From the IMG/VR virus record IMGVR_UViG_2541047931_000002, positions 1 through 31,884 of that record: DNA of 31,884 nt; one strand, 5' to 3'. The DNA comes from a virus (Duplodnaviria; Heunggongvirae; Uroviricota; Caudoviricetes). The notes under the pieces were generated by a model. The model saw only the letters and a list, made by a program, of their open reading frames with translations, made no database searches and had not been told where the DNA came from. This document shows, in pieces, positions 27,033 to 28,109 of the stretch. A program made the position numbers and the translations under genes. How positions within the stretch are numbered: the first letter of the stretch is position 1; each line of letters opens with the position of its first letter.

Positions 27033-28109
27033 TTACCCCCTGAAGCCCGGCGGAATTTCGTTATCCGGTTCAGAAATATGATTCACACAACGCTGGTTGT
27101 TCGTGCCGCTTACCGGGAGCAACCAGGGGTTCTCAAAATTCCGGTCCGGTCCAAAAAACGTCGTCGCTCGCTGAACAAATTCCGTTCCCGTTTTCCCGGT
27201 AGCCGCCAAGTATCTTGCGTAACGCCTCACGCCATCCAGCATGGCCTCTGGTGGCACCCCCTCGCGTAATCTGGCCTTCCATGCACTGAAAGCGGATTTC
27301 TTCGGGTTTGCTCCGGCACGCAACGGGTACTCCCGCCAGACCTGTTCGAACACATCCGGATAATCCACTCGTCCCACAGACAGCCCGGTGTTTTCCGGGA
27401 CTACCCGATCGGCTTCCCGCTGAATGGCGAAATCGGCTTCAGGCTGCTGCAGTTGGTGTGATTGTTCCGGCCTTGGGGTCATCACCTGCTGCACAGCGCC
27501 CGAATCGGCTTTCAGCGCATACGCTGAATCGGCTTCCGGTGTCGTGCCTGCTGGCTGACCAGGATTGACGGTCTGAACATCCCCTGCCTGGTTCGTGGCG
27601 TTTTTTACGCCATGGACCATAGTGTTTTGATCTTCTTGATCTGTATCTTTATCTGTATCTTTATCTGTCGTGACTCGTCGTGACATGTGCGTGACATTTC
27701 GTGACGCGCCGTGACAATCGCCATTTTGTTCCCGCTTTCTTTCCCTCTCTCGCTGCGCCCTCTTGCGCTCTGCCGGAGATTTTGCGGTTTGCGAAATATT
27801 GCCGTTGTCCTCTTTAAGCACCTGGCGTTTTTCCCATCCAGTGATTAAATCACCATCAAGTACCCGCCCCTGCATCGTCTGCAAAATTGAATCAATTACC
27901 TCTTCTGTCACGTCGAGCGCACTTGCTAAATCTTCTGTCGTGACATCAATGTGACCTCGCGTGACATTTCGTGACGCGCTCACCAGGAGGTGGATATACA
28001 CTGCCATCACTGTTGCAATTGGCTGCCCTGACACCCTGGCAATTGTTCGCCACTTAGGGTCATTTGGCATGTCATGCCATAATCTGAGCCAAGCGTTAGC
28101 CATACTCAC
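27033..28109 (-). CDS. Replication initiation protein (O-like) containing its own iteron cluster
   Basis: 358-aa ORF downstream of the cro/cII-like genes; N-terminal HTH-like region, Arg/Lys/Glu-rich linker (ERKRAQRERERKREQ), DTDKDTDKDTD repeat encoded by DNA direct repeats; position typical for lambdoid O. Confidence 0.65.
   Translation of the reverse strand: MSMANAWLRLWHDMPNDPKWRTIARVSGQPIATVMAVYIHLLVSASRNVTRGHIDVTTEDLASALDVTEEVIDSILQTMQGRVLDGDLITGWEKRQVLKEDNGNISQTAKSPAERKRAQRERERKREQNGDCHGASRNVTHMSRRVTTDKDTDKDTDQEDQNTMVHGVKNATNQAGDVQTVNPGQPAGTTPEADSAYALKADSGAVQQVMTPRPEQSHQLQQPEADFAIQREADRVVPENTGLSVGRVDYPDVFEQVWREYPLRAGANPKKSAFSAWKARLREGVPPEAMLDGVRRYARYLAATGKTGTEFVQRATTFFGPDRNFENPWLLPVSGTNNQRCVNHISEPDNEIPPGFRG
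27639..27715. repeat. Iteron cluster A inside the replication gene (putative origin)
   Basis: Three tandem 12-bp units (ATCTGTATCTTT x2 then ATCTGTCGTGAC), then CGTGAC repeated at 27669, 27679, 27690, 27700, 27710 (10-11 bp phasing). Confidence 0.6.
27939..27979. repeat. Iteron cluster B inside the replication gene
   Basis: GTGAC repeated at 27940, 27951, 27961, 27971 (10-11 bp phasing); the 21-bp GCGTGACATTTCGTGACGCGC at 27959-27979 is an exact copy of 27689-27709. Confidence 0.6.

Follow-up and report, generated by a model that had tools for sequence, protein, structure and literature searches.

The replication origin of phage lambda lies within gene O, where phased iterons are followed by an A-rich tract and then by a palindrome. 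The O/P context of this origin has been described (PMC7466680, PMC6022878), and origins embedded in the gene of an initiator are also found elsewhere. In Rep of plasmid pSK41, a winged-helix, DnaD-like N-terminal domain binds Rep boxes within the protein's own gene, the linker encoded by the origin is dispensable as protein, and a host-specific C-terminal domain binds primase (PMC5703833); G38P of phage SPP1 likewise binds direct repeats by an AT-rich unwinding element in its own gene (PMC6316719). Here we analyse a 31,884-nucleotide (nt) stretch of Caudoviricetes DNA (IMG/VR record IMGVR_UViG_2541047931_000002, positions 1 to 31,884; hereafter the window), in which a predicted replication initiator gene on the minus strand (27033..28109) houses two arrays of short, phased repeats. 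We argue that the segment 27589-27979 is a prophage replication origin embedded in the gene of its initiator, and we would put the probability of the full model developed below at about 0.7.

The open reading frame (ORF) encodes 358 amino acids (aa) when read from a GTG at 28109, whereas the start annotated in its RefSeq relatives is an ATG two codons further in (28103), for a product of 356 aa. Cluster A (27669..27715) comprises five exact copies of GTCACG on the coding (minus) strand, distributed over three reading frames and encoding aa 132-148. Seen from the plus strand, the five copies read CGTGAC, with first positions at 27669, 27679, 27690, 27700 and 27710 and spacings of 10, 11, 10 and 10 base pairs (bp), in agreement with the five occurrences at 10-11 bp that an initial annotation of this DNA had reported. 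That annotation also counted four more copies some 270 bp away; three of these are exact (plus-strand starts 27939, 27960 and 27970), whereas the remaining one is degenerate (TGTGAC, 27950-27955). This cluster B (27939..27975, coding strand), about 230-270 bp upstream of cluster A in the gene, thus consists of three GTCACG and one GTCACA at spacings of 11, 10 and 10 bp, and it encodes the loop aa 45-57 (ASRNVTRGHIDVT). Not listed before is a single inverted copy (GTCACG on the plus strand, 27907..27912) situated 27 bp from cluster B within the D66-V67-T68 codons, which has no counterpart at cluster A. The exact 21-bp duplication that had been noted can be read directly in the sequence: the two-iteron unit GCGTGACATTTCGTGACGCGC at 27689..27709 recurs at 27959-27979 and encodes ASRNVT at both sites. 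The three 12-bp tandem units described beside cluster A are also present (27634-27669), and Tandem Repeats Finder reports them as 2.9 copies at 27634-27668.

Phased CGTGAC arrays of this kind are not a product of chance, because the window contains five same-strand neighbour gaps of 10-11 bp, whereas 500 dinucleotide-preserving shuffles gave a mean of 0.006 and never exceeded one; even when any hexamer was allowed, the best phased-gap count remained at or below 2 in 200 shuffles. A spacing of 10-11 bp places the copies on one face of the helix, and the at least three short direct repeats, about one helical turn apart, by which an iteron origin can be recognised are represented here by five plus four copies. 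The individual units differ from those of lambda, being approximately 10 bp long with a 6-bp core, whereas the lambda iterons are dyad-symmetric repeats of 18-19 bp.

The initial annotation had itself raised the possibility that the repeats merely reflect a repeated peptide motif with no binding activity. Such a motif would be SRNVT or VT, required by the protein and devoid of any function at the DNA level, and both the ASRNVT encoded by the two copies of the 21-bp unit and the conservation of the cluster B loop peptide among GTCACG-type genes could be taken that way. The reading frames contradict it: on the coding strand GTCACG falls into frames 2, 0, 1 and 0 in cluster B and 1, 2, 0, 2 and 0 in cluster A, and since 10-11 bp is not a multiple of 3, this period cannot be a peptide period. 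In addition, the DNA outlasts the peptide. The protein of Pseudomonas phage 5371 is 70% identical over its first 140 residues and unrelated at its C-terminus; where cluster B would be expected, its gene carries four GTCACG at spacings of 10/10/11, and another four stand in the place of cluster A. The inverted copy and a purine-rich tract are present as well, and yet the peptide encoded by cluster A is different.

The same layout is widespread. With one genome per species, we collected 55 loci encoding the initiator's N-terminal domain from Enterobacterales, Pseudomonas, Bordetella, Stenotrophomonas, Acidovorax, Sphingomonas, Acidobacteria and others, and analysed 52 genes. Of these, 42, which belong to gamma-, beta- and alpha-proteobacteria and Acidobacteria, have two clusters at shared positions, each with a single hexamer in two or more exact, phased copies; the first cluster starts approximately 86-96 nt past the codons of a conserved DPKWR motif and the second approximately 220-280 nt further on. 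The presence of two separate clusters, which had been regarded as unusual, is hence the norm in this family. Three core types are represented among the 42 genes (GTCACG in 24, CGAACG(C) in 13 and GTAACG in 5), and clusters A and B of one gene always match. This covariation extends to synonymous positions, as illustrated by two relatives, L030 and L032, whose cluster B loops (NPVTDEAGVTLHIVTVT and NPVTDSNGVTSRHVTVT, respectively) are very similar and have common V-T dipeptides at the iteron positions. The valine codons are GTA in L030 and GTC in L032, each in agreement with the gene's own cluster A (GTAACG or GTCACG) 250 bp off.

Synonymous sites within cluster B are, in addition, practically frozen. 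When codon entropy was computed over conserved four- to six-fold degenerate codons in 22 GTCACG-type genes, its mean was 0.35 bit in cluster B versus 1.84 bit elsewhere in the N-terminal domain (Mann-Whitney test, p = 8e-5). V49 is encoded by GTC, T50 by ACG, G52 by GGT and V56 by GTC in 22 genes out of 22, H53 by CAC in 21 out of 21, and the V67 codon of the inverted copy, which occupies the same position in many homologues, is GTG in 18 out of 18. Because the copies fall into three frames, keep their positions, covary in their cores and have frozen synonymous sites in cluster B, the clusters are selected DNA sites; both are subject to purifying selection as DNA and they co-evolve, in keeping with the repeats of an iteron origin that evolve together with the initiator. 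With third positions fixed, GTA/GTC exchanges covarying between the clusters and cluster A residing in a linker that is predicted to be disordered, we consider the peptide by-product explanation to be extremely improbable. Within the population, variable sites are found at 2 of 60 hexamer positions as opposed to 98 of 1017 elsewhere, numbers that are too small to use.

Some variation of cluster B deserves mention in its own right. Certain alleles among close relatives (L008 and the proteins P0003, P0022 and P0089) carry a 7-aa insertion in the cluster B loop (NVTTCHGVS(R/L)RGH), corresponding to 21 bp and two iterons, which brings the cluster to six copies; iteron copy number therefore varies among otherwise similar genes. 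At CGAACGC-core loci (for example L035, L041 and L053), the GAACGC of cluster B coincides with the Glu-Arg codons of a loop motif, (T/N)ERG, and similar loop motifs (AEDRG, EERG) are also present in relatives without cluster B. This hints that cluster B may have evolved from, or been constrained by, pre-existing loop codons.

Immediately after cluster A in the direction of transcription, the sequence reads GATAAAGATACAGATAAAGATACAGATCAAGAAGATCAA and forms an A+T-rich tract (27620..27668, minus strand), purine-rich on the coding strand, with GATAAAGATACA repeats and including the 12-bp tandem; we presume it to be the DNA-unwinding element. The 50 nt past the last iteron have a G+C content (GC) of 0.28 as compared with 0.54 for the initiator gene, and the regional minimum of 0.32 falls at 27625-27674. 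Almost every homologue has such a (GATAAA/GATACA)n tract behind cluster A, genomes with 60-68% GC included, and the mean GC across loci is 0.36 for the tract and 0.56 for the genes. The A+T-rich element that adjoins the repeats of an iteron origin is thus present here as well.

Directly beyond this tract lies an inverted repeat with a 13-bp stem (27589..27619) that pairs better on the plus (template) strand, where the stem contains G-T wobbles in place of the A-C mismatches of the coding strand. It overlaps a conserved peptide, NT(M/L)VHG(E/V)K, and it is kept in eight genes, two of which (L004 and L146) have unrelated N-terminal domains and iterons; the template strand forms the more stable hairpin in five of the eight and the two strands are about equal in the other three. 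Covariation in the stem is weak, with one apparent compensatory change, 16 of 500 shuffles reaching the observed score and a bulge shifting the register in half of the sequences. The hairpin could be a single-strand signal such as a primosome assembly site. The order of iterons, A-rich tract and palindrome along the direction of transcription is the same as in lambda, and, as in lambda, the origin would occupy initiator-gene DNA that encodes the linker between a DNA-binding N-terminal domain and a C-terminal domain that provides the link to helicase loading. What sets the window apart from lambda is the second array in DNA encoding the N-terminal domain, the lack of a P gene and a DnaT-like C-terminal domain. 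No DnaA boxes were found within 27000-28200, promoter and terminator scans of the region remained at background level, and Rfam gave no matches within the putative origin.

The initial annotation placed the repeats in the gene of an O-like protein. All of them do lie inside the ORF 27033-28109, but the product is O-like in position only, because it has no match to Pfam Phage_rep_O (PF04492) and hence no sequence relation to lambda O; nor did Pfam assign it to any family at E <= 0.01, RepA_N, PF09681 (Phage_rep_org_N), PF17948 (DnaT_2) and DUF1376 (YdaU) included. End to end, it matches PHROG 3729, "replication initiation protein" (E = 1e-255), its RefSeq relatives are named "phage replisome organizer", and there are weak matches to PHROG replisome organizers (E = 5.8e-6 and 2.3e-4). 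In the AlphaFold2 model, the N-terminal domain (aa 1-96) is helical and predicted with confidence; after it come a basic helix (112-128), a long linker of low confidence (130-245) and, again predicted with confidence, the C-terminal domain (about 250-335). Compared with the PDB as a whole, this model returned nothing significant in Foldseek; for the N-terminal domain by itself (27822..28109, minus strand), the nearest folds are DnaD N-terminal domains and a RepA_N initiator, and this putative DnaD-like winged helix is presumed to be the part that binds the iterons. The loop encoded by cluster B (aa 45-57) connects helices 31-47 and 58-65, shows a dip in the predicted local distance difference test score (pLDDT) and is the place where relatives have 7-residue insertions, while cluster A together with the A-rich tract encodes linker residues 132-165, where linker pLDDT is below 50. 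With cluster B in an insertion-tolerant surface loop and cluster A in a disordered linker, the DNA signals are thus located where the protein tolerates arbitrary sequence.

A search for residues that might confer iteron specificity failed to produce a candidate: no column of the N-terminal domain outside the loop separates the three iteron types, and the idea that the cluster B loop itself reads the iterons is weakened by the L030 and L032 loops, which are very similar although the cores differ. Elsewhere in the linker-coding region, a 36-nt imperfect direct repeat (ATCGGCTTC...) occupies 27408-27443 and 27504-27539, and the 32 residues between repeats of this kind are missing from natural 324-aa alleles; linker length is thus polymorphic through repeat-mediated deletion.

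The C-terminal domain (aa about 250-358; 27036..27362, minus strand; pLDDT mostly 73-96) is homologous to the three-helix C-terminal domain of DnaT (primosomal protein i). A profile of the family matched DnaT C-terminal domains in the PDB (6aep_A, E = 1.5e-8; 2ru8_A, 3.5e-6; 9zbt_D, which is E. coli DnaT, 1.3e-5), aa about 255-358 align to that domain, and the protein ends in 13 residues, SEPDNEIPPGFRG, that nearly coincide with the DnaT tail (SEPDxxIPPGFRG, with IPPGFRG identical); the NCBIfam DnaT model (NF002770) recognises the tail only, with a score of 19.3 against a cutoff of 201. In DnaT, the C-terminal domain forms a filament on single-stranded DNA (ssDNA) and docks on PriA in the preprimosome, while the N-terminal domain is the part proposed to recruit DnaB/DnaC (PMC13377028); the residues by which the C-terminal domain contacts ssDNA have been identified (PMC4132743). 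The window protein has neither the N-terminal domain nor the acidic linker of DnaT; its N-terminus is the unrelated putative winged helix, so that the DnaT-like part is joined to what would be a sequence-specific origin-binding domain. Among experimentally characterised systems, pSK41 Rep is the closest analogue. That protein and the other RepA_N members are nonetheless Gram-positive plasmid initiators in which the Rep boxes form a single central set and DnaG is bound by the C-terminal domain, whereas the window has two arrays, a DnaT-like C-terminal domain and no Pfam RepA_N match.

That the initiator itself is the protein that binds the arrays is consistent with the fact that its N-terminal domain is the only protein family common to all loci (40 loci). 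It is conceivable that the arrays instead serve a host factor or a neighbouring phage regulator (YdaT/cII-like or DUF977), in particular as the enterobacterial loci have YdaT-like and cro-like genes alongside the initiator. No neighbouring family occurs in all loci, however; YdaT-like genes are present in 11 of 40 and cro-like genes in 15 of 40, whereas arrays are found in most, and the change of core across lineages from several bacterial phyla argues against a conserved host factor. We regard a binder other than the initiator as very unlikely.

According to the initial annotation, no P- or DnaC-like gene follows the initiator, and this stands: we found no P-, DnaC- or DnaB-like gene after it in the window. 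Only 40 bp separate the initiator stop from the next gene, too little to accommodate a loader; this next gene (26756..26992, minus strand), previously noted as a small GTG-initiated ORF, is a truncated form of DUF977 that covers residues 1-41 of the 134 in Pfam DUF977. Relative to NZ_CP075472, the window has suffered a 1,145-bp deletion at about 26860-26866 with a junction overlap of some 7 bp (L001 3869-5015), which cuts DUF977 down to 78 aa and takes out three small genes (a hypothetical gene, DUF7167 and another hypothetical gene). In the undeleted relative, the deleted segment contains no loader or other replication gene, and in intact relatives, too, the initiator is followed directly by DUF977. 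The distant full-length homologues with a DnaT-like C-terminal domain (L142-L146) and Shigella phage 75/02, on the other hand, have a dnaC-like gene directly downstream; where DUF977 is also present (L146 and 75/02), the order is dnaC-like gene, DUF1627, DUF977. Because every one of the more distant full-length homologues with a DnaT-like C-terminal domain carries a dnaC-like gene, the E. coli form is the derived one, having lost it.

Elsewhere in the family, the N-terminal domain is joined to many different C-termini and is partnered by lambda-P-like (L008, L147) or DnaC-like (L023, L030) proteins, by a primase-helicase (L005 and, by size and similarity to the L005 protein, L018) or by proteins that length and sequence suggest to be DnaB-type helicases (L021 and others), and it stands without a loader in L019, L028 and SfV. 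SPP1 also differs from the window in this respect: an origin embedded in the initiator gene (oriL in SPP1, putative in the window) and the name "replisome organizer" are common to both, but SPP1 itself encodes a loader (gp39) and a helicase (gp40), and a second site, oriR, lies about 13 kb away.

The truncation of the neighbouring gene by the 1,145-bp deletion and the absence of the relatives' dnaC-like gene might suggest that the module is a decaying relic, with the repeats being fossils in a prophage that no longer replicates by itself. The initiator ORF is intact, however, and phages Tritos and Evi have a 98% identical, loader-less module in which the iterons are unchanged. On MG1655 hsdR-, Tritos gives plaques, and this phage has been propagated and imaged (PMC9928086). 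Because Tritos and Evi have the loader-less module and Tritos plaques, loss of the loader is not a sign of decay, and given that the deleted segment of undeleted relatives is free of replication genes, we attach very little credence to the relic scenario.

The initial annotation's interpretation of the iterons as a putative origin inside the initiator gene is thus strongly supported by the reading frames, the conserved layout, the covariation, the frozen synonymous sites and the A-rich tract. In the model that we propose, the putative winged-helix N-terminal domain would bind both arrays and oligomerise, and the A and B arrays would be joined by looping or wrapping of the approximately 230-bp spacer. 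The resulting strain could then open the A-rich tract beside cluster A, and this tract and cluster A would together make up the indispensable core, with cluster B being an accessory that strengthens or regulates assembly, because four relatives (L042, L056, L047 and L060) have cluster A only. The DnaT-like C-terminal domain would couple the opened origin to host DnaB-DnaC, either directly or via PriA/PriB/DnaT, which would explain why the E. coli lineage can dispense with a phage dnaC-like gene.

Several points weigh against this model. In the literature we found no binding, unwinding or autonomous-replication data on any family member, and the plaques of Tritos attest to a working phage and not to this segment as its origin. 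Of the DnaT residues that contact ssDNA, F124 (here Y), Y127 and K133 are kept but W128, K143 and R146 are not, and the DnaT domain that has been proposed to recruit DnaB/DnaC is the very one missing from the initiator. The four relatives with cluster A only also mean that cluster B is not essential to the family. Finally, the phase coherence of cluster A with cluster B, R = 0.70 for a period of 10.0 bp and lower for 10.5 bp, is only suggestive of a common helical register, confounded as it is by shared ancestry and by insertions and deletions of iteron units, and we do not rely on it.

The same four relatives could be taken to mean that cluster A and the A-rich tract alone constitute the origin, and that cluster B, together with the inverted copy, serves for control, acting either as an autoregulatory transcription block or through titration or handcuffing of the initiator, which would limit firing as in P1 incA and plasmid iteron control. 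Cluster B occupies nt 130-170 of the coding region, so that a protein bound there would stand in the way of elongation, and the inverted copy next to it has no equivalent at cluster A, both of which would suit such a role. The retention of cluster B with frozen synonymous sites in most lineages, always matching cluster A, fits either role and does not tell them apart. In phage 75/02, too, a spacer of the same kind is flanked by a pair of repeat clusters at a distance of about 230-250 bp; because the N-terminal domain of its initiator is unrelated, this arrangement hints that cluster B is architectural rather than purely regulatory. Overall, we consider a pure control element to be a serious but rather unlikely alternative to a two-array origin.

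The 75/02 initiator has a C-terminal domain 64% identical to that of the window, the same hairpin and an A-rich tract of its own, but it differs in its unrelated N-terminal domain, in its iterons (GAAGCCCCTT) and in the presence of a dnaC-like gene. Its gene, from a Shiga toxin (Stx) phage, contains a bipartite repeat, AAGGGGCTTC and GAAGCCCCTT, in mutually inverted orientation (L004 2678-2708 and 2933-2962) and 229-250 bp apart, and beyond the second cluster come a purine tract of CAGGAA repeats and the hairpin also seen in the window. A pair of clusters some 230-250 bp apart may therefore be a general design of this class of origin. The Stx-phage replication types Eru4 and Eru6 (Shigella phage 75/02 and Stx2a_WGPS2) are listed in PMC8951638, where their origins are not analysed.

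A bolder version of the embedded-origin model, which we offer tentatively and consider possible though on balance doubtful, is that the origin fires without any phage helicase or loader: the captured DnaT C-terminal domain would redirect host PriA-PriB-DnaT, and thereby DnaB-DnaC, with cluster B as an integral component. Once the putative winged helix, bound at the two looped arrays, had opened the A-rich tract, the DnaT-like domain would either form a filament along the strand thus exposed or meet PriA at the conserved hairpin next to it; the hairpin would act like a primosome assembly site, and cluster B would be the architectural half of the origin placed in loop-coding DNA.

Our literature searches for GTCACG iterons or DnaT-like phage initiators yielded nothing relevant, and no description of the origin of this initiator family was found in the literature searched. 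Three elements are thus seemingly new, in that we found no description of them: a second array in domain-coding DNA, a DnaT-derived C-terminal domain on a putatively sequence-specific initiator, and a viable loader-less variant. The initiator is very common: a single cluster at 90% identity contains 5,786 sequences, most of them from E. coli, and more than 2,000 representative clusters make up the family of the N-terminal domain. The locus provides a clean natural experiment on overlapping codes, where one DNA would serve as a protein-binding array and as coding sequence and where synonymous sites reveal the second constraint. The DnaT C-terminal fusion and the repeated gain and loss of phage dnaC genes make DnaT-type handover to DnaB-DnaC testable in a simple phage. 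The iteron core types would predict replication-specificity (incompatibility) groups among lambdoid and Stx-related prophages, and the cores would mark the origin for prophage-induction studies.

As for the wider surroundings, the initial annotation had listed a membrane peptide and hok after the small GTG-initiated ORF, and this order is borne out: a hydrophobic ORF of 72 aa (26202-26420, minus strand), with no match in Pfam, PHROG or NCBIfam, lies between the DUF977 remnant and hok (25788-26000), which matches Pfam HOK_GEF and is accompanied by the sok RNA (Rfam). The suggested comparison with the Rac ydaU/ydaV-type module does not hold for the initiator itself, which has neither a DUF1376 match nor a DnaC-like partner gene; the resemblance to Rac is confined to the cro/YdaS-like, YdaT-like and DUF977 genes on its flanks. 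The sole sigma-70-like match in the region (27691-27718, plus strand; GTGACA-16-GACAAT, 9/12) is made of iterons and antisense to the initiator, at a background-level count. In the window as a whole, Rfam identified sok (25938-26112), DicF (30825-30876), the small RNA STnc100 (21804-21993) and two tRNA genes (22693-22942); together with the DUF968, YdaT-like and cro-like genes, this set marks a Qin/Rac-like lambdoid E. coli prophage.

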